Virus record (IMG/VR): IMGVR_UViG_2721755712_000001
Direction: 5' to 3' (one strand)
Length of the DNA stretch: 64,000 nt
From: a virus
Taxonomy: Duplodnaviria; Heunggongvirae; Uroviricota; Caudoviricetes
Made by a program: the position numbers and the translations under genes. How positions within the stretch are numbered: the first letter of the stretch is position 1; each line of letters starts with the position of its first letter. Positions 13,194-63,300 of this stretch are shown here, piece after piece. The notes beneath the pieces are model-generated. The model was not told where the DNA came from, made no database searches, and saw only the letters and a program-made list of their open reading frames with translations.

Positions 13194-15509
13194 TCAGATT
13201 TTGCAGGCTCCGTCGCACTCATCTTCTGGCTCGACGGCTACAGCTTGCGTAAGTGGATTCTGCGCTTCGTCGTCATCACGCTTTCCTGCCCCATCTCTGG
13301 TGTTGTGGTAGTAAAGCGTTTTAACTCCCATCTTGTAGGCGAGAAGCAAATCTGACAGTAGCGTCATCATTGGGACTTTATCGCCTTCAAAGCGAGAAGG
13401 GTCATAGTTGGTATTGGCTGAAATAGCCTGGTCAAAGAACTTCTGGATGATCGCCACCTTTGTCAGATAGCCGCGGTTGTCCGGCATATCCCACAGGTAT
13501 TCATACTGTTCCTTCAGTTTTTCAAACTCAGGCACGACCATCTTAACGATGCCGTCCTTAGAAGATTTCACCGACACCGGTCCACGAGGCGGTTCGATGC
13601 CGTTGGTGGAATTAGTGATCTGGCTGGAAGTCTCGCATGGCATTTGTGCCGTCAGTGTGGAGTTGCGAAGGCCGTATTTTGCAATACGTTCACGCAGTTC
13701 TTCCCACGGCATCTTTAACTCAAAGTTGGTTTCGCCACTTTCGTCTAATGAAGAACGGTAATGGTCGATCGGCAACTGACCAATTGCGTACTTGGTCTGC
13801 TCAAACCAGTCACACTCACCTTTTGCTTCAGCAAGTCGGCAGCTGGCATCAAGAAGGTAATACTGGATAGCTTCGAACGTTTCATGCACCAGTTTATTGC
13901 CAGCGGTATCAGAATAACGAACGCCATTCTTTGCCAGGTAATAAGCAAAGTTGGTTACACCAATTCCCAAGCTACGACGAGCTTTGGCAGGCACTTCGGC
14001 TGCCTCCATCGGATAGTCTTGATAATCCAGTAACGAATCCAGTGCAGCAACGGCATAGAACGCCACCTCTTTAAGAGACTCCAGTGAACGGATGGCTCCG
14101 AGGTTAAAAGCGGATAAAGTGCATAGCGCGATCTCACCGTTCGGGTCGTCGGTAAATGCCAGTGGACGAGTGGGTAGAGTGATCTCCATGCACAGGTTTG
14201 ACTGGCGAACAGGTGCAAGAGCAGGAATGAAAGCGCCATGCTCGTTAATATGATCGACGTTCGCAATATAAATTCGGCCCGTGGACGCTCGTTCCTGCAT
14301 CAGAGATGAGAACAGCTCAATGGCAGGTACTGACTTCTTGCGAATTGAATCATCGGCTTCGTATTTATGGTACAGCTTTTCAAACAGCTCCTGGTCTGTG
14401 AAGAAGGCTTCGTACATATCAGGCACATCATGCGGGCTGAACAGAGTGATGTTCTCGCTTCTGACGAGTCGACGGTACATTAGACGGTTACTCATGACGC
14501 CGTAATCAAGATGGCGAACGCGGTTTTCATCAATACCACGGTTATTTTTCACCACCAGCAGACTTTCAACTTCAAGATGCCAGATCGGGTAAAACGCTGT
14601 TGCTGCGCCACCACGAACACCACCTTGCGAACAAGATTTAACAGCCGTCTGGAAATGCTTCAGGAATGGAATAACTCCAGTATGGGTGGCTTCACCATTG
14701 CGGATCTCGCTGCCCAGCGCACGGATACGGCCAAAACCAATACCAATTCCAGCACGACGTGAAACGTAGTCGATAATTGCGGCTGAAGCTGCACTAATCC
14801 CTTTCAGACTATCGCCAGACTCAATCAGCACACAACTGGAGAACTGACGGGTTGGAGTACGGACGCCGGCCATGATTGGTGTGGGCAGAGACAGTTTGAA
14901 CGTACTTGTAACGTCATAGAAACCTTTGACCATCTCCATACGTGTTTTGCCAGCGCAGTCGTCTTCCCAATTCTGGAACAGACACATGCCTACCAGCATA
15001 TAGATATGTTGCGGCCCCTCATGAATCTCACCAGTAACACGGTTTTGAACGAGGTATTTGCTTTGCAACTGCACCGTAGCTGCATAGCCAAAAAGATCGT
15101 CACGTTTCGGCTTAATGTAATTGCCGAGTTCTTCGATCTCTTCAAACGAATAATGTGTCAGCAAATCCTTGTCATAAACGCCCTTGTTAACGTTCTTGAC
15201 AATGTGTTGGTAGAAGTTCGGATAGTCGTAACGACCGAAGGCATCTTTGCGGATTTTAAAAATGTTCAGGCGGGCAGCCACCTGTGAGTAATTTGGTGCT
15301 TCTGGTGAGATCAAATCAGCGGCAGATTTAACCAAAGCCTCATGCAACTGGCTGGTGGTCATCCCATCAAAAATGCTGGCCGCAGCTCCCATTGCTACAG
15401 CGGATGCGCTTACACCACGAATGCCTTCTACGCCATACATTACGACGCGGTTGTATTTTTCTTCGGATAACGGCTCTGTTTGGCCGTTACGTTTTACGAT
15501 GCTTATCAT
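13194..15509 (-). CDS. nrdA: ribonucleotide reductase class Ia large subunit
   Basis: SNLCMEI active-site region, C-terminal ECDGACKI tail closely matching E. coli NrdA. Confidence 0.95.
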   Translation of the reverse strand: MISIVKRNGQTEPLSEEKYNRVVMYGVEGIRGVSASAVAMGAAASIFDGMTTSQLHEALVKSAADLISPEAPNYSQVAARLNIFKIRKDAFGRYDYPNFYQHIVKNVNKGVYDKDLLTHYSFEEIEELGNYIKPKRDDLFGYAATVQLQSKYLVQNRVTGEIHEGPQHIYMLVGMCLFQNWEDDCAGKTRMEMVKGFYDVTSTFKLSLPTPIMAGVRTPTRQFSSCVLIESGDSLKGISAASAAIIDYVSRRAGIGIGFGRIRALGSEIRNGEATHTGVIPFLKHFQTAVKSCSQGGVRGGAATAFYPIWHLEVESLLVVKNNRGIDENRVRHLDYGVMSNRLMYRRLVRSENITLFSPHDVPDMYEAFFTDQELFEKLYHKYEADDSIRKKSVPAIELFSSLMQERASTGRIYIANVDHINEHGAFIPALAPVRQSNLCMEITLPTRPLAFTDDPNGEIALCTLSAFNLGAIRSLESLKEVAFYAVAALDSLLDYQDYPMEAAEVPAKARRSLGIGVTNFAYYLAKNGVRYSDTAGNKLVHETFEAIQYYLLDASCRLAEAKGECDWFEQTKYAIGQLPIDHYRSSLDESGETNFELKMPWEELRERIAKYGLRNSTLTAQMPCETSSQITNSTNGIEPPRGPVSVKSSKDGIVKMVVPEFEKLKEQYEYLWDMPDNRGYLTKVAIIQKFFDQAISANTNYDPSRFEGDKVPMMTLLSDLLLAYKMGVKTLYYHNTRDGAGKRDDDEAQNPLTQAVAVEPEDECDGACKI

Positions 15510-26050: not shown

Positions 26051-28390
26051 TTACTCTTCTACTGACTCGGTGGGATTGTCTTTTGATCTCCGGTCGTCGA
26101 TTGCCTGTAAAGCCGCAATGATTTCAGCTAGTGGCTTCTCCCGATACATCTCGACGATCTGTGATTTGGTGTATTTCTTGTCACCAATTTCTACTCGACC
26201 GCTGGCGTTCTTTGGCAGGTATCCTTCTTCCAGCATGTACTCGACGAGCGACTCGATAACGTCGAGGCCACGAGTAGGATCGAAGTAGAATTTCCAGGTG
26301 CATTTGCCATACGGTGGTGCAACTTTGTTTTTGATGCATTCTGCGCCTACGTCCTGGCCGATCTTCTCTTTACCATCCTTCATCACCGATGCACCAAGAC
26401 GGATACGTACAGAAGCGTAGAACTTCGGTGAATCTCCACCTGGCGACGTAGTAGGGTCGCCAAACATTACACCGATTTTTGTGCGAACCTGATTCAAGAA
26501 GATGATGCAGGCGTTGTATTTGCGTGCCCACAAAGCCAGAGTAGGGAAGTTCGCACTCGTCGCACGAGCCAGTGCCGTATTGTCGTTCATGTTTAGCTGA
26601 TCTTTGTCTTTGGCTGTGCCTTCAGCCATCTTTTCGAACTTCTCGGCTTTGGAGTTCGGAACCATAGACGCAAGAGAGTCAGCCACGATACAGATAGGTG
26701 CTGATTCGGGGATAAGCTCTTCATCACGAACCAATTTAAGTATTGTGCCGATCAACTCTACAGAGTCTTCGAAGGTATCTGGCTGCTTGTATACCCACTG
26801 ACCGTCATCCTCATCTGCGTTCAGGCCATTGGCTACAGCCAGGCCAACGTCAAAACTGTTTTCATGATCGAGGAATACCGCCAGACCATCTTGTTTTTGA
26901 GCGGAGATCATCGCTGCTGTTGCAAGGAATGTGTTGTGGCTGATAATCCCGTTAGACCAGAAAGAGTGTGTTTCCGGCATCGCTACGTCGAACGTTGGTG
27001 CTTCACCTTCCTCAATAGCCACGACTTCGTCGTAGAACAAGTTAGAGCCAATTACCGCTGCCAGTTGTGCAAACAGATGCTCGTTAAAACGATTCTTTCT
27101 GCCAATGAAGGAGACATAGATTTCTCGCAGTTTGTCTATTCCGACACGATCGCCGCGGCCAATAACGTGGTCTACCAGAGCGTAGTCTTCACGGGTGGTC
27201 TTGGTGAGCGACTCGTAGAGTGATTTCACTAAGCCGCTGATGTGCGGAACATAGCCTGAGTAAGTGCGGTCAAAACCAATGTCCCGTTTGGTTGCCACTG
27301 ATAAACGTGCCGGAGATTCGAAACCAATCGTTGACAGAAAAAGGTCGTAATTAGAGCCACTGAATGACAGCCGGTAATATGTATTTTCATAACCCGCGAC
27401 GTGTTTTTCAGAGATAGTTGACGTAATCCCCAGATTCAGGAGCATGAGGCGAATTTGCTGTAGCAGCAGCCCACTCGCGCTCACAACCTCAATGCAGCGA
27501 CCATCATTGACGTGGCATTCCAGCTCAAAGTAGCCGCGAAGGAATGCAATTTGAGCCTCGCTATTGGCGCGACGCACACTCAACGGAACCTGCTTGCCAG
27601 CAGCTTTCTCATACTCCAGACCATATTCTTTAAAAAGCAGCGAACGCACCTCTTTGCTAAACAGCACATGGTCTTCCGAGCCGTTATGTTTTCTCGTAAC
27701 TGGCATCTTGTCTGATACCAGCGAAATGAGGCGGTAGTACTCATCCTTGATGAAAGGATCTGTGTTAGAAAAATTCACTGAATTTTCAGAGGCCACGTAT
27801 CCGTCAGCAATTAAATAGCCCATCAGTTTTGCGATATTGGCATCCAGGTGCTGATCGCCGAATTGATGTGTGCCAACCATTGAAGGAATCGTGTCGCCTA
27901 CACTGATTTTTTCAGCATGTCGCCAGACGACATTACCTAAGTCGTCAACCACACGGATTGGGTGACGGAACGTAGCCTCGATATAACCGCCTGATGCCAG
28001 CTTAATACGCTTGAATTTGCGACGGTTGTTCCATGTCAGGTGTGAGGTCTTCTCTATCACGCCATTTTCATTGATGAGTCCAACGTTATGCTCTACATCG
28101 CGAGTAGTGCATGTCGCTTTGTACCCTTCAATCTCAAACAACTCTTTCACTGTTACCATTCCACGCTCCGTCAGCAGCATGGTGTCTGCGGTAACACATT
28201 TCCCCGCGCTTGGTGGCCCGAATACTTCTACGATACGACCACATGGGAAACCGCCATCGTAACGACCGGAAATAGCTTTGTTTAACGGAGGAAAGCCTGT
28301 GTCAATCCAATGAGTTACTTTCTGAATTTCGTCGTTGCTACCGATTTTCTTTTTCAGAGCAAGTGCCAGTGCGGATTTTCCTTTTGCCAT
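26051..28390 (-). CDS. recA: RecA recombinase interrupted by an in-frame intein
   Basis: Exteins (64 + 293 aa) match RecA: GRIVEVFGPPSAGK|T and IFLNQVRTKIGVMFGDPTTSPGGDSPKFYASVRI. Confidence 0.9.
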   Translation of the reverse strand: MAKGKSALALALKKKIGSNDEIQKVTHWIDTGFPPLNKAISGRYDGGFPCGRIVEVFGPPSAGKCVTADTMLLTERGMVTVKELFEIEGYKATCTTRDVEHNVGLINENGVIEKTSHLTWNNRRKFKRIKLASGGYIEATFRHPIRVVDDLGNVVWRHAEKISVGDTIPSMVGTHQFGDQHLDANIAKLMGYLIADGYVASENSVNFSNTDPFIKDEYYRLISLVSDKMPVTRKHNGSEDHVLFSKEVRSLLFKEYGLEYEKAAGKQVPLSVRRANSEAQIAFLRGYFELECHVNDGRCIEVVSASGLLLQQIRLMLLNLGITSTISEKHVAGYENTYYRLSFSGSNYDLFLSTIGFESPARLSVATKRDIGFDRTYSGYVPHISGLVKSLYESLTKTTREDYALVDHVIGRGDRVGIDKLREIYVSFIGRKNRFNEHLFAQLAAVIGSNLFYDEVVAIEEGEAPTFDVAMPETHSFWSNGIISHNTFLATAAMISAQKQDGLAVFLDHENSFDVGLAVANGLNADEDDGQWVYKQPDTFEDSVELIGTILKLVRDEELIPESAPICIVADSLASMVPNSKAEKFEKMAEGTAKDKDQLNMNDNTALARATSANFPTLALWARKYNACIIFLNQVRTKIGVMFGDPTTSPGGDSPKFYASVRIRLGASVMKDGKEKIGQDVGAECIKNKVAPPYGKCTWKFYFDPTRGLDVIESLVEYMLEEGYLPKNASGRVEIGDKKYTKSQIVEMYREKPLAEIIAALQAIDDRRSKDNPTESVEE
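26933..28198 (-). other. intein (422 aa) with LAGLIDADG homing-endonuclease domain, in RecA Walker A between GK and T
   Basis: Cys1 (CVTADTMLL), block B TFRHP, two LAGLIDADG-like motifs (LMGYLIADGY, LRGYFELE), C-terminal SNGIISHN followed by Thr+1. Confidence 0.85.
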
Positions 28391-28392
28391 GA

Positions 28393-28665
28393 TCAGGCTC
28401 CTTTTGTTTCGTTGATTCGTTTTAAAGCGGCGGATTCGTTGAATACAATCGCATCGTGATTAAGGAGTCTGGATACACGAGCGAGGATTTTTACGACCTG
28501 CTCGCTGACTAATCCAAACTCGCGATCTGTCGCTTTCATTCCGGCAGCGCCTAGAATTGACGGCAGTGCGATGACAGCGTACTCACCGTGATAAAAGACA
28601 ATCTCTTTTGCCAGTTGGGTGGGGGTGGTTGTAGCGCCATTAATAATCGATTTAAGCATTAGCAA
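28393..28665 (-). CDS. hypothetical protein
   Basis: 90-aa ORF. Confidence 0.4.
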   Translation of the reverse strand: MLMLKSIINGATTTPTQLAKEIVFYHGEYAVIALPSILGAAGMKATDREFGLVSEQVVKILARVSRLLNHDAIVFNESAALKRINETKGA

Positions 28666-33192: not shown

Positions 33193-36100
33193 TTACTTAT
33201 TTATTGTCTCCGCGATATCAGCCAGAATGGCCTCCAGTCGCTCTCCTTCTTCCGGTCGGAAGTACAGGATATTCGGGTTAAATCCGTAGAAGACGGTTGC
33301 ATCAAGCTCTGGGAAGTACTCCTTACGACCAATCAGATCTGATGGTTTACTCTTATTGTTAAATAGTGCGGTTGAACGACTACCACACGTCAAAATGTAG
33401 GTTGGTCGTACAAGATTAATTTCTTCCCGCATAAAGTCTGTGAACTGGCCTATCTCGTCTTTGGTATAGTCTTTCTCTTTGTCCTTAACCTTCTTACAAA
33501 CACCCGTGACATAAAGATCGCCCATGCGCAGATCTCCAACTGTCAGTAGTTTTGCCTTAAAGTCGTCGTATCCGTTCTCCATGAAGTAGCCGGTACGAGC
33601 GTCATTGCCGTTCGCATTGTCCAGAATGATCATGATTTTGGGTTTAATACCAATAGTCGGGCGTATCAACTCCTCACCCAAGCCCATTTCAGCCGCCATA
33701 CGTGTCATGAGTACGTTGATTTCGGCAGAACGCTTAGGATTCATTTCGAACGGACGTGATGCTTTAACAGCGTCAATGATGAGATTGCCCATCAGCTCAG
33801 CCTGGTCGCGCAGTCGTTCAGGATCAGTTGCTGGCAGACTGCCTGGCTCAATTGACGCAAAAGCCCCTACTTTATGAAGCGACTCGCGTACACGACTGTT
33901 ACATGCACGCTTCTCGACCGCTTCATCGAATTGTGCCACTGACTCGAATTTGCCACCAACTTTCTCACGCGCACGCATAATTGCCTGACAACCATTTTCA
34001 GAACAGCCTTTCACAGCAGAGAATGGCGCATACAGTGCCTGACTGCCGTCTTCGAGTGTGCGGATCTCAATTCGGTTAGATGACACATTAACGTCTGGTG
34101 GCAATACGCGAATGCCATAGGTCAGCGCATCCTTCACCAGCCCCTGATGCTTATCCTCGCCCAGAATGGTGAGCGCAGCTGCGAAGAACTCAGCAGGGTA
34201 GTGCGTCTTTAGCCACATAGACTGATAACTGATTAAAGAATAAGCAACGGAGTGTGATTTATTGAACTGATAGGCTCCGTTTTTCTCAAATGCGGTCCAG
34301 ATCTCCTTCGCTTTCATCTCTGATAGCCCTGGATGTGACGCTGTAACGCGTACTGCGTTTATAGGTAGTTTTGCGCCGTGCTCAAGTGCCTCTTCGACAG
34401 TTTTCAGAGTTCCGTCTTCGCATTTAAAATGTTCCGCACGGTGAATGCGCTGTGTAGTGCCATCTTCCAGCTCAACGTCTATCCAGCCAGCTTGAGCCTG
34501 AACGATGAACTTCTCGCCCATGCTCTTCATTTTTTCCATGTTCTTCTTACCGATTGCGGAACGCACAGCGTCAGCTTCAGCCATTGTGAAGCCGGCAAGC
34601 AATCGAGTCGCGTTCATCGTCTGTTCCTGATAGAGAATCACGCCATTTGTTTCCGCGGTAAGTTCATCAAGAACGGGGTGTAATGATTCCGGCGTCATAA
34701 AGCCTTTGGCGACAGAAACATAGTCATCCAACATGCCTGATTGAATTGGCCCCGGCCGGAAGAGCGCAGTTGTAGCGACGACCGTTTTAAAGCTCATTGG
34801 CTCAATTCCACCACCTAAATCTTTAAGCAGCTTGCGCATTGGGCCTGATTCAAGCTGGAAAACACCTTGAGTGTACCCAGCAGCAAAACCATCCAGCACC
34901 TTGCGATCTTCAAGAGAAATGGCATCAAGATTGATATCTTCACCTGTGTTCTCTTTTATGTAGCGTTTTGCACTATCGAGCAAATCGAGAGTTGCCAGGC
35001 CAAGCACGTCCAGCTTAATTAGGCCCATAGCCTCGCAGTAACGCTTGTCAAATGCGATACAACGCGCGTCACCACGGCGCTCAACCGGTGTACGTTCTGT
35101 CAGAGGAACACCTGCTACGATCATCCCTGCCGCATGTCTACCAAAGCCACGCATAAGGCTTTGTAACTTGCAGGCTGCATTGAATGCATCAGGATATTTT
35201 GTTGCGTATTTGTCGAGACTTGCCAGTTGTTCGCGCAGCTCTTCCAATGGAAGGCTATCATCCTCGACGTTCTTCAGTTCTTTTGATACCGCCATATCTG
35301 CGGACTCCACACCATAAATACGAGCGGTATCACGTAGTGCAGAGGCTGCGCCCAGGTAGGTGAAGTTCGGAATACCCGCAACGTAATCTTCGCCGTAGCG
35401 TTCATTCAGATACTCGATCACCTCATGGCGACGTGCCTGGCTGAAGTCCAAGTCCGCATCCGGCAAGTCGAGACGCTCAGGGTTGATGAAACGCTCAAAC
35501 AGAAGACCGTGACGGATTGGGTCGACGTTGGTTATGCCTATGCACCACGCCACCAGAGAACCGGCAGAGGAACCACGACCAGGCCCAACGGGAATGCCAG
35601 TTTCACGACTATGATTCATCAGATCGCGTACCATCAGGAAGTAACCACAAAATCCCAGGCGAGTCAGCGTGTCCATTTCGTACTTTAGCCGCTCAACATA
35701 AACCCTGTTCTCAGAAGCAGGTGGTGTGTAGCCAAACTCTTTTGTGGTAAGACGTTTACGCAGCCCTGCAACAGCCAGTTTCATAAGCGTTGCAGGCTCG
35801 TCGTCTGCCATCTTTGGCAGTGCTGGCGGCAATTCATGCCAGCGCCATGTGCAGGCATCGATAATGGTATCCTGCGTTGTTGAGGCCATTGCAGCTGTTA
35901 CCGGCACATCCATGCGAACGGAGAAGGCTTTAAGCGCCTCAAGGAGATGGCGGCGACCATTGACGGCGTTATCTCGCTGGTGGGGGATACGCAGACGATG
36001 CGGCTGGTCGATTTTGATGTTGTTCGTAACCATGTGCGCAATGTCTTTAATGTCTGCATCGTCGATCGATTCGTAATAAGCGGGATAGAACGCCACTGGC

Positions 36101-36711
36101 TCTATTTTCAATGCGCTGGCGACTTTCATCGCCCGGACGTTAATCTGGTCGTAGAATGGGGTAGGGTGCGGATAAACCACACTATAGAAGTTGTCTTTTC
36201 CACCCGCTGTAATCAGTGTGCTTATGATTTTTGCAAAATCGTTGCGTTGGAACACGCTACCGATGTCGGAAGTAAGCAGGATGATGTTGCCTTTGGCATA
36301 TGTAGAAACCAACTGTTCGAGCGAGAGACGCGGTACAAAGTAGAACTGTTCTCGTGTGTTGGCCACCGTCATTAGTTCGCAGATGTCGCGATATCCTTGC
36401 TCATTTTTAATTAGAGCGGTAAACGAGTAGTTACGTCCCCGCTCTAATGATTCCATACATCTCATAGATTCTTTAGCAAGTTTAGCCCGGTGCTCGTATG
36501 TGGGATCATCAACAATGTTTAGTTTCACACCACAAATAACCGCCATGTCGTCACCAGCGGCACGTTGTAGTGGAATAACGCTCGCAATATTCATGCTATC
36601 TGCTGAAATTACAGCGGTGTAGCCAGCTTCTCTGGCAATCTTCACCGCGTTTTCTGCTTTTAGAGCCGACTCCCCAAGTGAGAAGTCAGTTCGAACCATC
36701 AGTGCTTTCAT
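33193..36711 (-). CDS. dnaE: DNA polymerase III alpha-type replicative polymerase (DnaE family)
   Basis: N-terminal PHP-like region; GPGRGSSAGSLVAWCIGITNVDP...LLFERFINPER core; 1172 aa. Confidence 0.9.
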   Translation of the reverse strand: MKALMVRTDFSLGESALKAENAVKIAREAGYTAVISADSMNIASVIPLQRAAGDDMAVICGVKLNIVDDPTYEHRAKLAKESMRCMESLERGRNYSFTALIKNEQGYRDICELMTVANTREQFYFVPRLSLEQLVSTYAKGNIILLTSDIGSVFQRNDFAKIISTLITAGGKDNFYSVVYPHPTPFYDQINVRAMKVASALKIEPVAFYPAYYESIDDADIKDIAHMVTNNIKIDQPHRLRIPHQRDNAVNGRRHLLEALKAFSVRMDVPVTAAMASTTQDTIIDACTWRWHELPPALPKMADDEPATLMKLAVAGLRKRLTTKEFGYTPPASENRVYVERLKYEMDTLTRLGFCGYFLMVRDLMNHSRETGIPVGPGRGSSAGSLVAWCIGITNVDPIRHGLLFERFINPERLDLPDADLDFSQARRHEVIEYLNERYGEDYVAGIPNFTYLGAASALRDTARIYGVESADMAVSKELKNVEDDSLPLEELREQLASLDKYATKYPDAFNAACKLQSLMRGFGRHAAGMIVAGVPLTERTPVERRGDARCIAFDKRYCEAMGLIKLDVLGLATLDLLDSAKRYIKENTGEDINLDAISLEDRKVLDGFAAGYTQGVFQLESGPMRKLLKDLGGGIEPMSFKTVVATTALFRPGPIQSGMLDDYVSVAKGFMTPESLHPVLDELTAETNGVILYQEQTMNATRLLAGFTMAEADAVRSAIGKKNMEKMKSMGEKFIVQAQAGWIDVELEDGTTQRIHRAEHFKCEDGTLKTVEEALEHGAKLPINAVRVTASHPGLSEMKAKEIWTAFEKNGAYQFNKSHSVAYSLISYQSMWLKTHYPAEFFAAALTILGEDKHQGLVKDALTYGIRVLPPDVNVSSNRIEIRTLEDGSQALYAPFSAVKGCSENGCQAIMRAREKVGGKFESVAQFDEAVEKRACNSRVRESLHKVGAFASIEPGSLPATDPERLRDQAELMGNLIIDAVKASRPFEMNPKRSAEINVLMTRMAAEMGLGEELIRPTIGIKPKIMIILDNANGNDARTGYFMENGYDDFKAKLLTVGDLRMGDLYVTGVCKKVKDKEKDYTKDEIGQFTDFMREEINLVRPTYILTCGSRSTALFNNKSKPSDLIGRKEYFPELDATVFYGFNPNILYFRPEEGERLEAILADIAETINK

Positions 36712-36895
36712 GTGTTTTTACCTTTATGGTTTTTTTGATTTTGTCATTGGGGAAGCCTACGAACTTCCCATACATCGAAATCGCAACTTCTTTTGCTGAT
36801 TGGTGACAATCGGGCTTGTCTGGACATACCAGACAAGCCTTACCAGTTTCAGAAGCAGCGATAAGAGAGCCGAAACATCCTTTACGCACGATCAA
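36686..36895 (-). CDS. small Cys-rich protein
   Basis: 69 aa, four Cys in C-x13-C-x2-C-x5-C pattern; overlaps dnaE start. Confidence 0.3.
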   Translation of the reverse strand: MIVRKGCFGSLIAASETGKACLVCPDKPDCHQSAKEVAISMYGKFVGFPNDKIKKTIKVKTHESTDGSN

Positions 36896-38127
36896 CCAAA
36901 TATTTTTTGAACAACTTCACGAGCCGCTTGTGCAGAAGCTGAAGGGAGTTTGTTAATGAAAGAACGCTCAATACCTGTCACAAAGTCGCCTCGCATCATT
37001 CCAATCTTGGCCGACAACAAAAGTTCACGAGGGCCAATTGGCTGACTGATAAGGTGCTCTTCGTATCCATCGCGAACGATACCGGCAAACTTAACCATCT
37101 TTTCTGCGTATTCATCCACGATACCGGCATTTATCAACATGTTGATCTCTGCCTCTTTGCTCATGTATTTCACATTCGAAACGATGCCAAAACGCGAAAA
37201 GTTCGCGGCGTTCTGGATGTTTGTACCCTGGTACAAGCCGGTTTCATCACCAGATCCGTTCGTGTTGCCAGTGCCAATGAAAGCAAACCGTTCATGCGGA
37301 GTAATGCGACGCCATTCTGGAGTCGCCTCTTTGATGACCAACGCTTCACCTTCCAGCACTGGCTGATACACGCCAAGAATCTGTGGAAACGCAAAGTCGT
37401 ATTCATCCGCGAGGTAAACCCAGCCATGCTTCATTGCGAGCGCAAGCAAGCCAGGCTCGAAATACGTAGAGCCATCACGCGCCAGAATTTGCCCCGTAAC
37501 ATGTGCCTCTTCCATTGATGCTGTATGTTGGGCACGGATCAACGGACGATTGAGCAAAGCACATAGTTGTGTAGGCAATGACGATTTGCCTGTTCCTGCA
37601 TGACCCCACAAATAGCCAGGTATGCCAAGTTCAAGCATCATGAAAATGTCTTTGATCAGTTCGAAGTCGCCATATACGTAGCCCTTCTTCACTTCTGGAA
37701 CGAACTCTGGAAACGGCGTATTGACGTTGACGCTAACCATGAGCGGCGTCCCACGTTTTGTTCCGAGTTCTTTCACCGTTACATTTAGCAGTTCGTGAGC
37801 TGCGACCAGATCTGTCTTGTACTCAACTGTGCCTGTGTAGCCTGGGCTACTGGTCACGCCAGATGATTTGGCCATTTCGCTTTTTTGCTCGGCACGTTTA
37901 GCTTGAATTGCATCAAGTGCCTTTTTCGATAGCGTTGGCTCATCTGGAAACTGTGTTGTGTACATTTTCAGTACGGTGTCAGGATCGGCATCTTTTACTG
38001 ACTCAGGAATGCCCTCGCAATTACCATTGGCTACATGGGACTTAAAATAGTGAAATGATTTTCCGCACCACTTGCAAACAAGGTAATCAGAAGGATTTTT
38101 TTCATTTTGCAGTGCAGTAGTAGTCAT
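36892..38127 (-). CDS. CobS-like AAA+ ATPase (MoxR family)
   Basis: Walker A GHAGTGKSS; paired with VWA protein. Confidence 0.7.
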   Translation of the reverse strand: MTTTALQNEKNPSDYLVCKWCGKSFHYFKSHVANGNCEGIPESVKDADPDTVLKMYTTQFPDEPTLSKKALDAIQAKRAEQKSEMAKSSGVTSSPGYTGTVEYKTDLVAAHELLNVTVKELGTKRGTPLMVSVNVNTPFPEFVPEVKKGYVYGDFELIKDIFMMLELGIPGYLWGHAGTGKSSLPTQLCALLNRPLIRAQHTASMEEAHVTGQILARDGSTYFEPGLLALAMKHGWVYLADEYDFAFPQILGVYQPVLEGEALVIKEATPEWRRITPHERFAFIGTGNTNGSGDETGLYQGTNIQNAANFSRFGIVSNVKYMSKEAEINMLINAGIVDEYAEKMVKFAGIVRDGYEEHLISQPIGPRELLLSAKIGMMRGDFVTGIERSFINKLPSASAQAAREVVQKIFG

Positions 38128-38222
38128 GCGTTTTTCCTTTGTTTTCTAATGAGCGTTCAACTTCTTATATAAATATATCATTATCTATCGTAAGTGGTTA
38201 CTTATCGTTAAGGCTGTTTTGT

Positions 38223-40331
38223 TCACTTTAAAATGATACGAGATAGTTCAGTAACTACAGATGAACCAAGACTATCAACGCTCGTTACCAGGGCATGATT
38301 TGAGTAAAATCTCTCCGGTGCGTCAGTCATGATGCCAATTGCCATCAAATCAATGTCAGTCTGCGTTTCAATTTGCTTCGCAACCGAACGCAAATGAGCG
38401 TCAAAACCTCTCCCAACAGCCCACGGCTCGCCATCGCTCAGAACAAGCATGATCTTCCTGTCCTCCATGCGACCGGAAAATAACGATGCAAGGCTGGCTA
38501 TGCTTTCACCATCCACGTTATTAAGAAGTGGGAATGTGTAGCCTACGCACCCCATACGTGAGCGAACTTCGCGAGAATTTACCTTTTCATTCCAATTTTT
38601 GATGATAGGTAGCATTAAAGATTCAAAGCGAGAGAACTCATACTTGACAGCCTTAAGTTCTCCTGCCGCCATATGACTACCAAATGTAGTGAAGCCTGTG
38701 ATAATGTTGGGAACATTTATTCGATCAAGGGCATCGGCGATGGTATATGCACTTGCAAGAGCCAATTGTATCGTTATACCCCTCATTGAACCTGATAAAT
38801 CAATCACTTGTTGAACACAGGCGTTAACGGCTTTAGATTCTTCTTTTTTACGAAACACGCGATCATCATTCATTGCTAATCTGTAGATACTAGAACCATG
38901 AATGCGCCCCCGACGCTGGCCCGGTATAAACTGAACTCTGTTTCTGCTTGCTATTGCTCGCTCCAGGTCTTTTGCCAGCGTCGACGAAACACCTGACGAA
39001 AGATGCTTTTCAATATATTTGTCGAAGAGCTGGTTGCCTTCAGGAACGATGCGATAGCGGCTGATTGGACATCCTCCTAAATCAATATCGGAGAATGTTT
39101 TAATAAGCCGTTTGATATGGGCTTCTGCCTGATCAATCGAGCCGATGAAGTCGTATGAGCGATTGTATGGCCTGTATTCGCTTTTCGAGCTTTCTGTTAA
39201 CTCGCTTTTAATCGTTTCGGATAGAGCATCTTCTGTCATGCCTCCGACTTCATCTTCTATGCTATCCAGCTCCTCTAAAGCCTCTTCCAGACTCATTTTT
39301 GACGGAGTTGGGATATCTGAAGAGCCGTCTTCTGTCGTTTTTCTTTTTTCGTGGTCAGCGGTTAATGATTCTGACGCCGCGTTATCAGAAGCATCAGAAT
39401 CTGATACCTCTTTATCATTTTCTGTATCATCGAATATTGTTTCTGATGATTCAGATAATTCTGAATCATCACTGTTGTTATTATCATGTTTGTGCTTACT
39501 ATGTGATTCTGATTTGATAGATTTGTGGTTATCTAACGATGAAGATGTCTCATGATCTTCGTTGTCTTCATTGTTTTCTCCAGAGGCATCCGTCTGGTCA
39601 GCGTCTGAAGGATCGGAAGTTTTTCCCGGAGCTGACTCCTTACCATTGCTTTCACTTTCAGTGTCTTTGAGGATCTTAGCTATGGTCGCAGCCACCTTTA
39701 CACAATCCTCGGTGCAAGACATGTTACGCACGGCCACATCGATACCATGTTCTTTTAATAATGAAATTGGTTTCTCAATGACAGGCCAGTATTCATCCAT
39801 GAAATCTACGAACGGTGCTTGGCCATCCCAGGCTCTTACAACCGGACAGAGAAAGAAGTTTAGAAAAAGCGCGCGCTGATCTTTGCCACAATAAGCAATA
39901 GCCTCTGAAGCCTTTGGTTTAAAGACTTTTTCGATTATAAGGCGCTGAGTTGCCATCAGATTACGTCTTGTTCCGTTAAAGACCTGACCCATTTTTCGCT
40001 CGATGAACACGTCTTCTAAGGCATTCCATAGCGACCAGGAAGGAACGCGTCCTTTTTCTCTCATTTTGTTGGACACACGAATATCGGTAAACAAAATGTG
40101 AGCAACCTCATGATCGAGAAATCCGCGCACAGCATTCATCAATGCCGGTGTTGCGTTATCCGGGATTGATGGGATGTTTACGAGAATTGGCTCTCCATCA
40201 TCGTTATAGCGTACATAAGCGTCGTCCCCTCGTTCTGCAACAGGGATGTTTTTACCTGAAAGGAGAGCGACTACTCGTTTTACACTGTCACGGAAGTCCT
40301 GAACCTCTTTGATGGAACGTTTTTTAGACAT
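38223..40331 (-). CDS. CobT-like von Willebrand factor A domain protein
   Basis: Long acidic low-complexity linker; C-terminal VWA with MIDAS DLSGSM. Confidence 0.7.
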   Translation of the reverse strand: MSKKRSIKEVQDFRDSVKRVVALLSGKNIPVAERGDDAYVRYNDDGEPILVNIPSIPDNATPALMNAVRGFLDHEVAHILFTDIRVSNKMREKGRVPSWSLWNALEDVFIERKMGQVFNGTRRNLMATQRLIIEKVFKPKASEAIAYCGKDQRALFLNFFLCPVVRAWDGQAPFVDFMDEYWPVIEKPISLLKEHGIDVAVRNMSCTEDCVKVAATIAKILKDTESESNGKESAPGKTSDPSDADQTDASGENNEDNEDHETSSSLDNHKSIKSESHSKHKHDNNNSDDSELSESSETIFDDTENDKEVSDSDASDNAASESLTADHEKRKTTEDGSSDIPTPSKMSLEEALEELDSIEDEVGGMTEDALSETIKSELTESSKSEYRPYNRSYDFIGSIDQAEAHIKRLIKTFSDIDLGGCPISRYRIVPEGNQLFDKYIEKHLSSGVSSTLAKDLERAIASRNRVQFIPGQRRGRIHGSSIYRLAMNDDRVFRKKEESKAVNACVQQVIDLSGSMRGITIQLALASAYTIADALDRINVPNIITGFTTFGSHMAAGELKAVKYEFSRFESLMLPIIKNWNEKVNSREVRSRMGCVGYTFPLLNNVDGESIASLASLFSGRMEDRKIMLVLSDGEPWAVGRGFDAHLRSVAKQIETQTDIDLMAIGIMTDAPERFYSNHALVTSVDSLGSSVVTELSRIILK

Positions 40332-51398: not shown

Positions 51399-52739
51399 TT
51401 AGGTAACGTCTAAGATTCGCTCAATGAAGCGCATTTGTTCGAGGTTTTGTTTAACGCGAATGCTGATCCCTCCCTGCTGGTTACGTGAACCAGCAAAGTA
51501 GAGACGAGCCTCTCCTTTCGCTTCTTCTTCTTCTGTTTTGTTGATCGTTATTACCAGGTCAGCAATACGTACTTTTTCGATGTTGTCGGCAGCGTGCATC
51601 ATTGTGGCAACTTCTGACGCGCCACCTTCACGGTTTGTTTGCGATGCTGTGATACCAGCAACGTTGTGTTTGTCATAAAGAGCACGTAAGTCGGTATAGA
51701 TACTACGTATGTTGGCGCGATCATCACGAAGGTCATAACTGGCACGCATCAAATCTGCATAGTCGACAACAACCATGTCAGGCACCATGCCATTGGCTTT
51801 CATGCTGTTAAGCATACGATCCAGATCTGCCGGTGACATACTTCCTGACGGACGCTCAACAACCCACAAACTACCAATCCCCTTCGTGGCTCCCAACTCT
51901 GCCAACTTACGATGAACCTCATCGCGCCGTTCCACCAGCTTGGACATTTCTGTCTCCGACAATCTTGCATCAAAACGGTCGGATAAAATGGTGGTGTGAA
52001 CCTCCAGCGAGAGATACAGAACATTGTAGCCAGCAAGCGTTGCGTTTATGGAAAACTCACCCATTGCGGTCGATTTACCGGATTTAGCGAACCCCATGAA
52101 GAGCACCATTTCACGCTTCGCCCAGCCTTTTTGGTACAGCAACCTATCGAGCAGAGGGAGTCCAGTTGTAATGCTGTTTGGCACATACTCCTCTGAAGCC
52201 TCATATTCACGCGCTTTCAATCGCTCACTTGCGGAGGTGTAGTAGTCATAGATTCCGGTCGCTTCGTTCGATCCAATCTGCTGAACCTTGGCCATGATTG
52301 CCATCGCCCCCTGAAAGTCGCCCTTCTCTTTCAGTTCAGCAGCCTTAATCAGAGCATCATCAAACGCTACGCTTTTTGCGAAGGTTGATACCTGGTCAAC
52401 CATGTACGAGGTATCAGACAATTTTTCTGCAAGGATGCGCTTAAACGCAGCAACAACATCGGCGAATAGTTCCTCACGGATAGTCTTATCGCGTTTCGCA
52501 CGCTTAAGCATATCCAGAATCGCAGATGAAGAGGGCGCGCTCTTGTACATACGGTAATAGCCCGAAACCATATTAACCAATATGGCATTGGCCGCATTGG
52601 CAAATTGGCTAGGTACAACCAGATCTCCAGCACGAGTAAGAAACTCGTGATCACGACAAAAATAGGCCGTCAATCTGTTCTGAAAATCTTCATCAAACTC
52701 TTCGGACAGCCCGCGTCCTGTATGGCAAAGTTCGGTCAT
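51399..52739 (-). CDS. DnaB-like replicative helicase
   Basis: Walker A GFAKSGKST in C-terminal RecA-like domain; motif A upstream. Confidence 0.75.
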   Translation of the reverse strand: MTELCHTGRGLSEEFDEDFQNRLTAYFCRDHEFLTRAGDLVVPSQFANAANAILVNMVSGYYRMYKSAPSSSAILDMLKRAKRDKTIREELFADVVAAFKRILAEKLSDTSYMVDQVSTFAKSVAFDDALIKAAELKEKGDFQGAMAIMAKVQQIGSNEATGIYDYYTSASERLKAREYEASEEYVPNSITTGLPLLDRLLYQKGWAKREMVLFMGFAKSGKSTAMGEFSINATLAGYNVLYLSLEVHTTILSDRFDARLSETEMSKLVERRDEVHRKLAELGATKGIGSLWVVERPSGSMSPADLDRMLNSMKANGMVPDMVVVDYADLMRASYDLRDDRANIRSIYTDLRALYDKHNVAGITASQTNREGGASEVATMMHAADNIEKVRIADLVITINKTEEEEAKGEARLYFAGSRNQQGGISIRVKQNLEQMRFIERILDVT

Positions 52740-59870: not shown

Positions 59871-60192
59871 TTTTTACGCCATACGCGGCTAACCCCAAAA
59901 GCAGTGCAGTAATAATGAACGACGTTATTTTAGAAACAATGCCGCCAAAGAACCCACTGGAGATGGAATCTAACCGGTTAAGGAGTTTGTCCAGATTGGA
60001 GTGTTGAATACTATGTTGCGCCGGGGTCATATCACCAAAGTAGGTTTTCAGCTGATCATTGACCTCCTGGCCAATTTCTTCACGTAGCTCTTTACCTAAT
60101 TTACCAACAACCTCCCGAGCAACGATCGCGGCAATACGCTCAACTTGCTCTGTTGTAACGCCCGCCATCTCGTTCGACATGTTTTCCTCCAT
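59857..60192 (-). CDS. membrane protein (holin-like?)
   Basis: 111 aa with single C-terminal TM helix. Confidence 0.3.
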   Translation of the reverse strand: MEENMSNEMAGVTTEQVERIAAIVAREVVGKLGKELREEIGQEVNDQLKTYFGDMTPAQHSIQHSNLDKLLNRLDSISSGFFGGIVSKITSFIITALLLGLAAYGVKNGLQ

Positions 60193-60382
60193 GAAAAGTC
60201 AAATCGGGATGGCGGATTTATATCACATTTCACCCTTTTGTTGTAGGTGTGTACTTACCTATCTATGTATATACCGTTTAACGGCTGTTCAAATTCGTAT
60301 CTAGTAACTCACTAATATATCCCTATGATTGCGGCTGTGAGATCGCATTTTAAACCTCACAGCCATATAAATAATGTCTAAA

Positions 60383-63300
60383 TCAGTTACTTGTTGCCCC
60401 AACAGTACCGGCAAATTTCAGCCATTGACCTGACGGACTTCTATTACTGCGGTAGTGATAAACGAGGATTGCGTTTGTCACTCCACCGTAATCAGCTTTA
60501 TGTGACGTTGTTAAACGAATTGTATAATCACCGTTAGGTAGATTAAAAACTTCGATTATAGATTCTGCTAATTCTACAGCACCAAATCCCGTTATATTGT
60601 TGATACTGCCAGCATTGAATCCCATAGCATCGCCAAAGCCAATCCAATATCTTTTGCTAAACGCCCCATTTGATTTAAGGTGGCTAATGAATGTGGACAA
60701 ACTCATGCCCATATCCCCACCTGAAATAGAGGAAGTTCGCACAGTCATGCTTGGAAGAGCACTGCTCTTCACATAGGAACTTAGAAGATTCGTTACCTCT
60801 GTTTTCGTATAAGCATTAAGGTTAGCCGCAGTCAAAGTAATATCGGCAGAGCCATCAAACGCCACACCAGCAATTTTCCTTGCTGTCTGCAATTTTGTGG
60901 CGGTTGCTGCATTGCCAGTTGTATTCTGATTGCCAGTGGCATTCACACCAGGAATGGAGTCCCTTGATGTATATACCTGCGCCCACGCTGACCATGCCGC
61001 ATCTGTGGTATCTCTTCGTGAGCGAATGAAAACTGGCGCATGTGCACCGCTCGTACCACTCCAGCCAATAAGCAACTCGCCCTCACCAGCAGCACTCGCA
61101 CCTTTCATGTGCAATACGTTGCCATACGTGGTCGGGTAGCTAGTGCTGTACGCCTCGTACATTTGAATGCCAGCAGTGCCTTGAGTAGAGCCGCTTAACG
61201 CCGTAACTCGGCCACGAGATACCAATGTATTAATATTGATATCGCCTGAACCATCAAACTTAACACCATTGATGTTTCTCGCTGTTTGCAACTTCGTAGC
61301 AGTAGCCGCGTTGCCCGTTGTATTCTGATTACCTGCCGTATTTACACCAGGCAAATTTATGTTCGCAGATCCATCGAAGGCCACGCCGCCGATAGTTCTT
61401 GCAGTCTGCAATTTCGTTGCTGTAGCAGCATTTCCTGAAAGACTTGAAATAAATGGATGTGAACAGTAATAACCTCGTCCATTTTTAAAGTCCAAAATTA
61501 TCTGTGCATTCGTACTTTCTGATAAAGGATCAGTTGCCCCCCACTTATAAGTGGTTTGACCAACTGCATAATCAGCCGTTGGAACAATTACGTTCAAGCC
61601 CTCCTCAGCAAATATCTTGATAGGGAATGCTCTGGCTTCAACGTAAAATACACTACACAAATCGTCATCTTTCACACTTGAAATAATCGAGTGTATAGCT
61701 CGCTCAGCAGTAGAATATATTGAGAAAAAACCAGCCGCATATGAACCGCGATCAGACCAACCGCCAGGCATAACAAACCCATTAAATTCACAATTATTCA
61801 TGGCGTATCCGCCAACTGAGGAACCAGTAGTTATCACAACTCGTGAGGCTAATTCATCGGTACTGCCTCTAGATCGGCGAAAGACTATAGGATACCACTT
61901 ACCGCTTACTGCATTTGCAGGCGCTGAAAAAGTGTATTTTCTCATCCCTTTTTTATTGTCTATTTCGCTTTTGCTGTATACGTCAAGGTTCGCAGGAGTC
62001 AGCGTTATGTCCGCAGAACCATCAAACTTAACACCGTTGATTGTACGCGCTGTCTGTAGTTTTGTAGCGGTTGCAGCATTGCCGGTAGTGCTCTGATTAC
62101 CAGCCGTATTAACACCTGGCAAATTAATATTCGCAGTACCATCAAAGCTCACGCCGCCGATAGTTCTTGCCGTCTGAAGTTTTGTAGCAGTTGCAGCATT
62201 ACCAGTGGTGTTCTGATTACCCGTAGTATTTACACCTGGAAGGTTGATATTTGCAGAACCGTCGAAACCAACTCCACCGATAGATCTTGCCGTCTGCAAT
62301 TTCGTTGCTGTACTTGCATTACCATTTAATGTTCCGGTGATACCACCAGTAACAGACAACGGACCTGAAACTGTTCCTCCGGTTGTTGGCAGTGCTCCAA
62401 TATCTAACGGCGTCGGTTTCTGATGTGTGCTATACATCGTATAAACAACACCATCGGTAACGCTGGAAGGCTTACTCGCTGAATATGTTGGCGATGTATA
62501 AATAGAAACTGACGCATTTGCAGTACAATCCCAATGGATATTTACACTCGTCGCATAATTGCCAATTTCAACGTAAATATCATATGTATCGCCGGATGTG
62601 TTGATCCAGGCGAAATTCGCTAATCCGACAGCTGTACGCTTCCACAAAGCACCTGTAATTCCTTTGGGGTTTCCATTGCCTGCTCGTAGAACCAGTTCTG
62701 AAATGCCTGCCTGATGTGGGGAACCGACGTTGTAACCAGCGCCACCAATCAATGCGATGTAAACGATGGAACTCGCTTGTGGCATGGTAACCGTAGCCAG
62801 TTTGAACCACCCTGCCCCGCCAGAGAAAGACATCGTTACTGAATTTAAAGTACCAATATCTTTCGGCGTTAATGTGATATCCGCAGTCAGTGCTTTTCCG
62901 TTAACTTTTCGGTTAGATGGCACCCTGCTATTCGCATTGTCATTGGCTGCTTTAACTGCTTTTGGCGTTGCGGCCAGCGATTCACTGGTGCTGTCGACAG
63001 CACTGCTAAGTTTCACAACACCTTTAGTTGTAAGGCTTGCGTCTTCCATCGCAACTGCACCGGCAATCTCTTCAGCACGATCAGCAGCAGCTTCCGCACG
63101 GGTCGCAGCGGATTCAGCAGCAGTTTTGCTCTGAGATGCTGCCGTCGCACTGCCTGCCGCCTCTGTTGCTTTCGTGGATGCCGTCGTGGCGCTGCCCTTC
63201 GCTGCTGACGCCTGTCTGGTCGCCTCATCTTTTGAAGCAGACGCCGATGATGCCGATGACGCCGCCGAACTGGCGGACGATGCGGCTGCCGTTTTTGAGG

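Follow-up and report, generated by a model that had tools for sequence, protein, structure and literature searches.

How should we read a recombinase gene whose ATP-binding loop is interrupted, in frame, by 422 additional residues? The question is raised by a RecA-family open reading frame (ORF) of 779 aa at 26051..28390 in a 64,000-nucleotide stretch of Caudoviricetes DNA, IMG/VR record IMGVR_UViG_2721755712_000001; we call the whole of that stretch the window, use its positions throughout, and note that the features described below lie on its minus (-) strand unless stated otherwise. Very probably, the best explanation is that the insert is a canonical class-1 LAGLIDADG intein lodged in the Walker A motif of the recombinase of an SSU5-like phage-plasmid, and that it is the intein already catalogued at RecA insertion point c2.

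The original prediction held that the 779-aa ORF encodes a RecA, that taking out residues 65-486 (26933..28198) leaves a protein of 357 aa, and that the insert begins with Cys, carries a T..H block and two LAGLIDADG-like motifs, and ends in His-Asn before a Thr; we reproduce these coordinates exactly, and all of these features are present. The insert, Cys65-Asn486, splits the Walker A sequence GPPSAGK|T between Lys64 and Thr, opening with CVTADT and closing with IISHN, so that the terminal His-Asn is followed directly by the +1 Thr (IISHN|T). Profile searches with intein and LAGLIDADG models returned matches above cut-off to Pfam Intein_splicing (PF14890, 46.6 bits against a cut-off of 35.8), to Pfam LAGLIDADG_3 (PF14528, 65.8 bits against 22.5, covering intein residues 215-292), and to the NCBIfam models for the N-terminal (TIGR01445, 35.5 bits against 24.5) and C-terminal (TIGR01443, 17.8 bits against 15.6) intein regions, and NCBIfam models of intein-bearing RFC, IF-2, GyrA, DnaB and VMA also match the insert. 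Pfam RecA (PF00154) matches the precursor in two stretches, which after in-silico splicing become one contiguous stretch (profile positions 31-257 of 262, E 2.3e-42, 145.7 bits against a cut-off of 27) running through Walker A, Walker B, L1 and L2. The spliced product also aligns to E. coli RecA, both at Walker A (GRIVEVFGPPSAGKTFL versus GRIVEIYGPESSGKTTL, with GPESSGKT conserved) and at L2 (NQVRTKIGVMFGDPTTSPGG), and the expectation that the excised exteins would rejoin into a full RecA alignment is thereby upheld. Calculated masses are 86.6 kDa for the precursor, 47.5 kDa for the intein and 39.0 kDa for the ligated exteins, close to the 47 and 39 kDa first estimated for intein and product.

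Within the insert, the parts of a splicing domain enclose those of a nuclease. Block A, CVTADTMLL (28172..28198), provides the presumed nucleophile Cys1, and both C1 and T6 are invariant in homologues. Block B, GGYIEATFRHPIRV (27950..27991), contains the TxxH motif T76-F-R-H79, of which T76 and H79 are invariant in our two alignments, A1 and A2. At the other end, blocks F and G, PTFDVAMPETHSFWSNGIISHN (26933..26998), fall in the TIGR01443 match and have His421-Asn422 as their last residues; P401, T402, D404, V405, H411, S412 and F413 of this region are invariant in alignment A2. The nested homing-endonuclease region, a LAGLIDADG core with a helical C-terminal extension, occupies roughly intein residues 111-385 (27044..27868), bounds that are approximate and follow the secondary structure of a model. 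Its first motif (block C), KLMGYLIADGYV, spans residues 124-135 (27794..27829) with the core LMGYLIADG, in which Asp132 is putatively catalytic and the ADG is conserved in homologues P0004-P0006. The second (block E), FLRGYFELECHV, spans residues 219-230 (27509..27544) with the core LRGYFELEC, and here Glu227, or alternatively Glu225, is the putative catalytic residue. Such a set of features is far beyond chance, and the profile matches and motifs together confirm the insert as a full-length class-1 intein with a nested, putative LAGLIDADG endonuclease.

The strongest sequence-only evidence for an intein comes from natural alleles that lack the insert. The alleles of phage CMS-2020a (357 aa) and of SSU5 (358 aa) read GPPSAGK|TFLATAAM straight through the site, with zero residues gained or lost, and correspond exactly to the predicted ligated junction; the flanks in phage CMS-2020a are 97.6-97.8% identical to those of the window. 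At the DNA level, the junction would read CCAAGCGCGGGGAAA|ACATTCCTTGCAAC in a synthetic cognate site and reads CCAAGTGCAGGGAAA|ACGTTCCTT in the common intein-less allele and GCCGGTAAA|ACCTTTTTG in the intein-less allele of SSU5 type.

The predicted structure is consistent with this anatomy. An AlphaFold2 model of the intein (pLDDT 81.2, pTM 0.85) places a beta-rich splicing domain, approximately residues 1-107 plus 387-422, around a helical and sheet-containing endonuclease region. When the model was compared with the PDB by Foldseek, the best match was the TliVMA intein (7qss, E 3.5e-21, TM 0.69), in a group with PI-TkoII (2cw7) and PI-PfuI (1dq3) that spans E values of 3.5e-21 to 1.6e-17 and TM scores of 0.6-0.7; PI-SceI (1vde) matched more distantly (E ~1e-8 to 1e-7, TM ~0.45). 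All four of these inteins likewise carry a HINT domain with a nested two-motif LAGLIDADG endonuclease, but they differ from the window intein in their sequence (10-20% identity), in their archaeal or yeast hosts, in the genes that house them and in the sites they target. Superposition of the model's splicing domain on the mini-intein and hedgehog Hint structures 1am2, 4e2t and 1at0 gives an rmsd of 2.2-3.6 A, and the Pho RadA intein (4e2t, 2lqm) is matched by this domain as well, so the model supports a HINT fold for it. For the endonuclease domain, matches to PI-PfuI, PI-TkoII and the monomeric LAGLIDADG enzyme I-DmoI (4un7 and others, TMt ~0.6) support a pseudo-dimeric alpha-beta-beta-alpha-beta-beta-alpha LAGLIDADG fold in the model.

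Other identities for the insert were considered and rejected. With one continuous frame and Hint blocks at both ends, the insert is neither an endonuclease gene standing on its own nor a group I intron, and a bacterial intein-like or hedgehog-type Hint domain does not fit Cys1, the His-Asn end, the +1 Thr and the precise empty site. A foreign origin cannot be argued from composition, as GC and GC3 of the intein (0.482 and 0.524) are near those of the extein (0.486 and 0.500). Antisense ORFs on the plus strand within the intein (26864..27223, 27512..27715 and 28011..28262) are without supporting evidence.

The insertion site, which the original prediction suggested might be undescribed, turns out on comparison with catalogued RecA inteins to have been published. 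In a survey of RadA/RecA inteins that distinguishes five insertion points, a to e, Topilina et al. 2015 (NAR 43:6631, PMC4513877) describe a c2 intein whose P-loop site coincides with that of the archaeal RadA inteins, and their Table 1 lists point 'c2 (65-486)' in Enterobacter cloacae BWH 29, Enterobacter sp. MGH 26, Salmonella enterica 557928 and the E. coli strains 2780750, 2865200, E1520, HVH 139, HVH 43, KOEGE 10 and MS 145-7. Because the coordinates 65-486 are identical and the gene is present in MS 145-7, one of the strains in that table (on a plasmid of the complete assembly, with 99.6% nucleotide identity), we regard the two as the same intein. Kelley et al. 2016 (PMC5050341) speak of insertion between Lys and Thr as 'classic' for P-loop inteins, and the P-loop is a general intein hot-spot (Novikova et al. 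2016). With intein, coordinates and insertion point in print since 2015, the locus carries little weight as a discovery. What we add is the host, the recombinase of SSU5-like phage-plasmids, and a population signature of mobility. The enterobacterial c2 inteins share coordinates, P-loop site and host genera with the window intein, and structurally there is no difference; the difference lies in the host, which the survey treats as bacterial or E. coli RecA (PMC4513877) and which we find in SSU5-like phage-plasmids only. Literature searches under phage-plasmid names (SSU5, phage-plasmid, phage-like plasmid) returned nothing relevant on an intein, and no UvsX intein was found in the literature.

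Which recombinase, then, carries the intein? Over this region the window shares 97% identity with Escherichia phages PhiR41_1 and Cyrano and is related to Salmonella phage SSU5, and we therefore assign the window to the SSU5-like phage-plasmids; across the precursor ORF itself, DNA identity to Cyrano and PhiR41_1 is 96.9-97.1%. The N-extein (residues 1-64, 28199..28390) ends in the Walker A residues GPPSAGK (28199..28219) and aligns to E. coli RecA GRIVEIYGPESSGK. The C-extein (residues 487-779 plus stop, 26051..26932), which includes the L2 loop, starts with the +1 nucleophile Thr487 (26930..26932), and this residue is at the same time the Walker A threonine. That the host is a RecA, as originally proposed, stands as to family, given the contiguous PF00154 match of the spliced product, and falls as to the cellular gene. 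The spliced extein scores 153.7 bits against TIGR02012, the cellular RecA equivalog, well below the cut-off of 325.3, and it matches phrog_97, 'UvsX-like recombinase' (E 1e-91). On the TIGR02012 score, the PHROG 97 assignment and a location on plasmids and phages only, we take the host gene to be the RecA-family recombinase of a phage or phage-plasmid, other than the cellular, chromosomal recA. Comparison of the spliced product with the PDB gave RecA at E ~1e-31 to 1e-35 and the phage UvsX structure 9gbg at E 2e-9, so by sequence the protein is much closer to RecA than to that UvsX. The whole 779-aa precursor has a PHROG of its own, phrog_9666, which it matches over 1-779 of 779.

The gene is widespread, and so is its intein-bearing form. 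The exact 779-aa protein occurs on 452 contigs, and its 90%-identity cluster has 1,496 members, among whose names are 'Protein RecA', 'recombinase RecA' and 'LAGLIDADG family homing endonuclease'. In PLSDB the gene turns up on 730 plasmids, and on 236 it is covered to 80% or more, which indicates that the intein is present. Among 5,426 complete E. coli genomes, 250 have the gene and 113 the intein-containing form, and every one of the 252 places where the gene occurs is on a plasmid, with zero on a chromosome; about 45% of SSU5-like E. coli plasmids thus carry the intein and about half are without it. Annotation obscures this. PGAP names the precursor 'LAGLIDADG family homing endonuclease' or 'Hint domain-containing protein', and GenBank submitters call it 'recombinase RecA' without noting an intein, so the RefSeq product names conceal the element's own RecA-family recombinase. 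Correct assignment of the gene to phage-plasmids is of modest value, and the natural intein-plus/minus polymorphism offers a convenient, mesophilic and tractable system in which to study homing and P-loop splicing in E. coli itself. One further variant was seen in PLSDB: in CP059946.1, an E. coli plasmid from a turkey faecal isolate, the intein-containing gene matches in two pieces over 3,120 bp (59990-63109) and not the expected 2,340 bp, which points to some 780 bp of additional DNA inside the gene, perhaps an insertion sequence (IS) element, with no gene annotated there.

Is the intein mobile, or has it simply been inherited with the gene? We compared 83 alleles (20 intein-plus, 63 intein-minus), taken from three sources, IMG/VR, four phage records and the window, a sample whose 20:63 ratio is unusable as a frequency since its 80 best tblastn loci favour single-segment, intein-less matches. 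Intein DNA is 96.5-99.9% identical among alleles (dS at most 0.10), whereas the surrounding exteins are 80-86% identical (dS 1.2-2.4), and intein-plus and intein-minus alleles are mixed in three of five extein clades defined at 10% divergence and in five of 21 at 2%. The clearest case is a Klebsiella phage allele (L003) whose extein is 99.1% identical to that of the intein-less L056 and 85% identical to the next intein-plus extein, and whose intein shares 99.9% identity with its counterparts in L074 and L078. Three bases beside the junction, G(-7), G(-4) and A(+3), are found in all 20 intein-plus alleles and, in combination, in none of the 63 intein-less ones, an association that we offer as descriptive. 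In nearest-neighbour pairs, junction-proximal synonymous sites differ despite near-identical remaining extein: within about 130 nt of the junction, L003 and L056 differ only at -7, -4 and +3. This is the trace that homing with short co-conversion tracts would be expected to leave, although the same pattern would also arise if the intein quickly invaded alleles that already had the exact cognate site. The intein ORF is intact at 422 aa in all 20 sampled alleles, with a dN/dS of ~0.15-0.2 between the two intein haplotypes, a value for the whole intein and not for the endonuclease region separately; extein dN/dS in intein-containing alleles is 0.01-0.03, as expected for a functional gene. Together, the contrast between intein and extein divergence and the linked junction markers point to recent, repeated homing.

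Homing would not be the only process at work. In L075, L067 and L001 the intein is a mosaic, joined by a single crossover, of the two main haplotypes, window-type and Klebsiella-type, and in L075 the N-extein is identical to that of the window while the C-extein is 84% identical and comes from another lineage. The mosaics therefore place recombination breakpoints inside the intein, and ordinary recombination must also be acting.

The anatomy, the exact empty site, the conservation, the fold and the population signature of horizontal spread are observed here; splicing and endonuclease cleavage we infer, and established intein chemistry suggests how the steps might run. In the 86.6-kDa precursor, with the Walker A loop split by 422 residues, there would be no ATP binding or hydrolysis. 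Cys1 would undergo an N-S acyl shift, aided by Thr76 and His79 of block B, and attack by Thr+1 (trans-esterification) would then give a branched intermediate. Cyclisation of Asn422, aided by His421, would free the 47.5-kDa intein, and a final O-N shift would restore the GK-T peptide bond and with it an active 39.0-kDa recombinase, whose likely partners are the products of neighbouring genes, a gp32-like single-stranded DNA-binding protein (SSB), a UvsY-like mediator and a 5'-3' exonuclease. When two phage-plasmids co-reside in a cell, the freed intein, in which Asp132 and Glu227 probably bind the metal, may cut the intein-less Walker A coding sequence, and repair from the intein-containing copy would carry over the intein together with a few flanking bases.

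Several considerations weigh against this reading. In the searchable literature we found no splicing or DNA-cleavage experiment on the window intein. Motif 2 has Cys as its final residue (ELEC) where Gly is usual, and full endonuclease activity is not guaranteed. The IMG/VR sample is phylogenetically non-independent, so that no probability can be attached to the 20/20 versus 0/63 association at the junction, and ordinary homologous recombination could move the intein without its endonuclease. The last of these leads to an alternative that we consider unlikely but worth taking seriously, namely that splicing has been kept while the endonuclease is dead, with general recombination between co-resident SSU5-like phage-plasmids, together with vertical descent, accounting for the patchy distribution and the low divergence of the intein. 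The three mosaics and the long exchanged extein segments of L075 are what this would predict, SSU5-like phage-plasmids encode recombination machinery of their own, and the non-canonical ELEC end of motif 2 as well as the decayed endonuclease domains of homologous RecA P-loop inteins (P0007, P0012 and P0013) speak for it too. But acidic residues have been kept in both LAGLIDADG motifs, the endonuclease region is an intact ORF in 20 of 20 alleles, whole-intein dN/dS between haplotypes is well below 1, and tracts as short as that separating L003 from L056 fit repair of a break at the site better than random crossovers.

It is also conceivable, though we give it hardly any credence, that what fills the site is a Hint/endonuclease remnant in decay and unable to splice, or else a bacterial intein-like domain, and that it has inactivated the recombinase, leaving a tolerated pseudogene. 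Splicing here is a prediction, a phage-plasmid could perhaps make use of the RecA of its host, and roughly half of such plasmids in E. coli lack the insert; yet C1, T76, H79, H421, N422 and T+1 are all present and invariant among homologues, the exact protein recurs on 452 contigs, the insertion is precise, in frame and costs the extein zero residues, and purifying selection of the kind suggested by an extein dN/dS of 0.01-0.03 in intein-containing alleles would be hard to square with a pseudogene. Somewhat less remote, but still improbable in our estimation, is domestication of the intein as a conditional switch on the recombinase, responsive to redox state, to single-stranded DNA (ssDNA) or DNA damage, or to temperature, by analogy with the P. 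horikoshii RadA intein. The insertion point is the same as that of this conditionally splicing intein (PMC4513877, PMC5790916), Cys50 of the N-extein and Cys30, 228 and 235 of the intein could in principle trap Cys1, and the intein persists in ~45% of E. coli SSU5-like plasmids. We might then imagine, with the same low expectation, that the switch holds the recombinase inactive in the plasmid (lysogenic) state until DNA damage, ssDNA or a redox change triggers splicing. However, Pho-like packing of intein against extein was infeasible in the E. coli precursor model of Topilina et al. (PMC4513877), intein-less alleles are equally common, and the homing signature accounts for persistence of the intein without any benefit to the host. 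Returning to the canonical homing intein, a more modest proposal is that it may be an actively homing element that is now spreading among the phage-plasmids of clinical Enterobacteriaceae.

The window intein also has relatives beyond the phage-plasmids. RecA genes from Actinomycetota and Anaerolineae metagenome-assembled genomes (MAGs) and from metagenomes (L086-L093; P0006-P0009, P0012, P0013) carry P-loop inteins with the like junction GPESSGK|C...SHN|TT, 26-45% identical to the window intein over its full length, and differ in having bona fide bacterial RecA exteins. On this sequence evidence we consider the window intein and these cellular and metagenomic inteins to be members of a site-specific ('allelic') family that spans phage and cellular RecA homologues. 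Three of them (P0007, P0012 and P0013), at 241-363 aa compared with 422, are missing either LAGLIDADG motif 1 or the greater part of the endonuclease domain, and look like later stages of the homing cycle. In four Actinomycetota MAGs (L087, L090, L091 and L093), the RecA frames run to ~1,180-1,215 aa with the P-loop intein inside, and these ~1,200-aa ORFs have room for a second intein elsewhere in RecA, which they probably contain. A cellular RecA intein in an Actinomycetes MAG (L097:2001-3275, CAVZKY010000037.1) is apparently decayed: its N-junction, GPESSGKSTAAPTP|MSW, is without Cys1 and its C-terminus reads SHD|TT, with Asn replaced by Asp, and it may be a remnant incapable of splicing, or else an artefact of assembly or of frame.

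Mycobacterial RecA inteins (M. tuberculosis, site a, 252-691; M. leprae, site b, 206-570) resemble the window intein in having a RecA-family host, and that of M. tuberculosis carries an endonuclease domain. Their lineage is unrelated, as the model NF007072 matches the window intein weakly (24.6 bits), and they differ in position, sitting at monomer-monomer interface sites and not in the P-loop (PMC4513877). The archaeal RadA c1 inteins, which comprise the mini-inteins of Pyrococcus horikoshii and Thermococcus sibiricus and the full-length inteins of T. kodakarensis and T. litoralis, occupy the homologous Walker A point and share the +1 Thr, but there is little intein sequence similarity, and the authors of PMC4513877 speak of an independent invasion. 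Unlike the window intein, those of Pho and Tsi RadA are without an endonuclease, and temperature-gated conditional splicing is a feature of Pho RadA. P-loop inteins of other ATPases (TerL1-a, DnaB-b, MCM-a and RFC-a) likewise insert at the same Walker A position with a +1 Thr or Ser, and the RFC-with-intein model NF003157 aligns across the window junction, including GPPxxGK|C, at 79 bits; these differ in their host proteins and have low similarity to the window intein outside the splicing blocks and the LAGLIDADG core. More distantly related is an intein in the P-loop of RuvB (P0014).

The recombinase gene lies in a replication and recombination module. It is preceded by a Shine-Dalgarno-like AAGGAG (28398..28403), 7 nt 5' of the ATG as read off the upstream sequence, and its neighbours include the 5'-3' exonuclease, the gp32-like SSB and the UvsY-like mediator (the last two labels being annotations in phage Cyrano), SbcCD-like nuclease subunits, a replication initiator and a Pol III alpha-type polymerase. 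Of nine large window ORFs scanned, the recombinase is the sole intein-bearing gene. Ribonucleotide reductase (RNR) large subunits, Pol III alpha-type polymerases and DnaB-like helicases are the commonest intein hosts elsewhere; in the window, no second intein was found in the RNR large subunit (13194..15509), the Pol III alpha-type polymerase (33193..36711) or the DnaB-like helicase (51399..52739), whose Pfam matches are uninterrupted. Between the exonuclease and recombinase genes, and abutting both, lies a 90-aa ORF (28393..28665) that matches phrog_2207 (E 1e-53) and has conserved counterparts in E. coli plasmids and SSU5 (SSU5_059). Genes for an AAA_5 ATPase (411 aa) and a CobT-like VWA protein (702 aa) stand side by side at 36892..40331, downstream of the polymerase gene.

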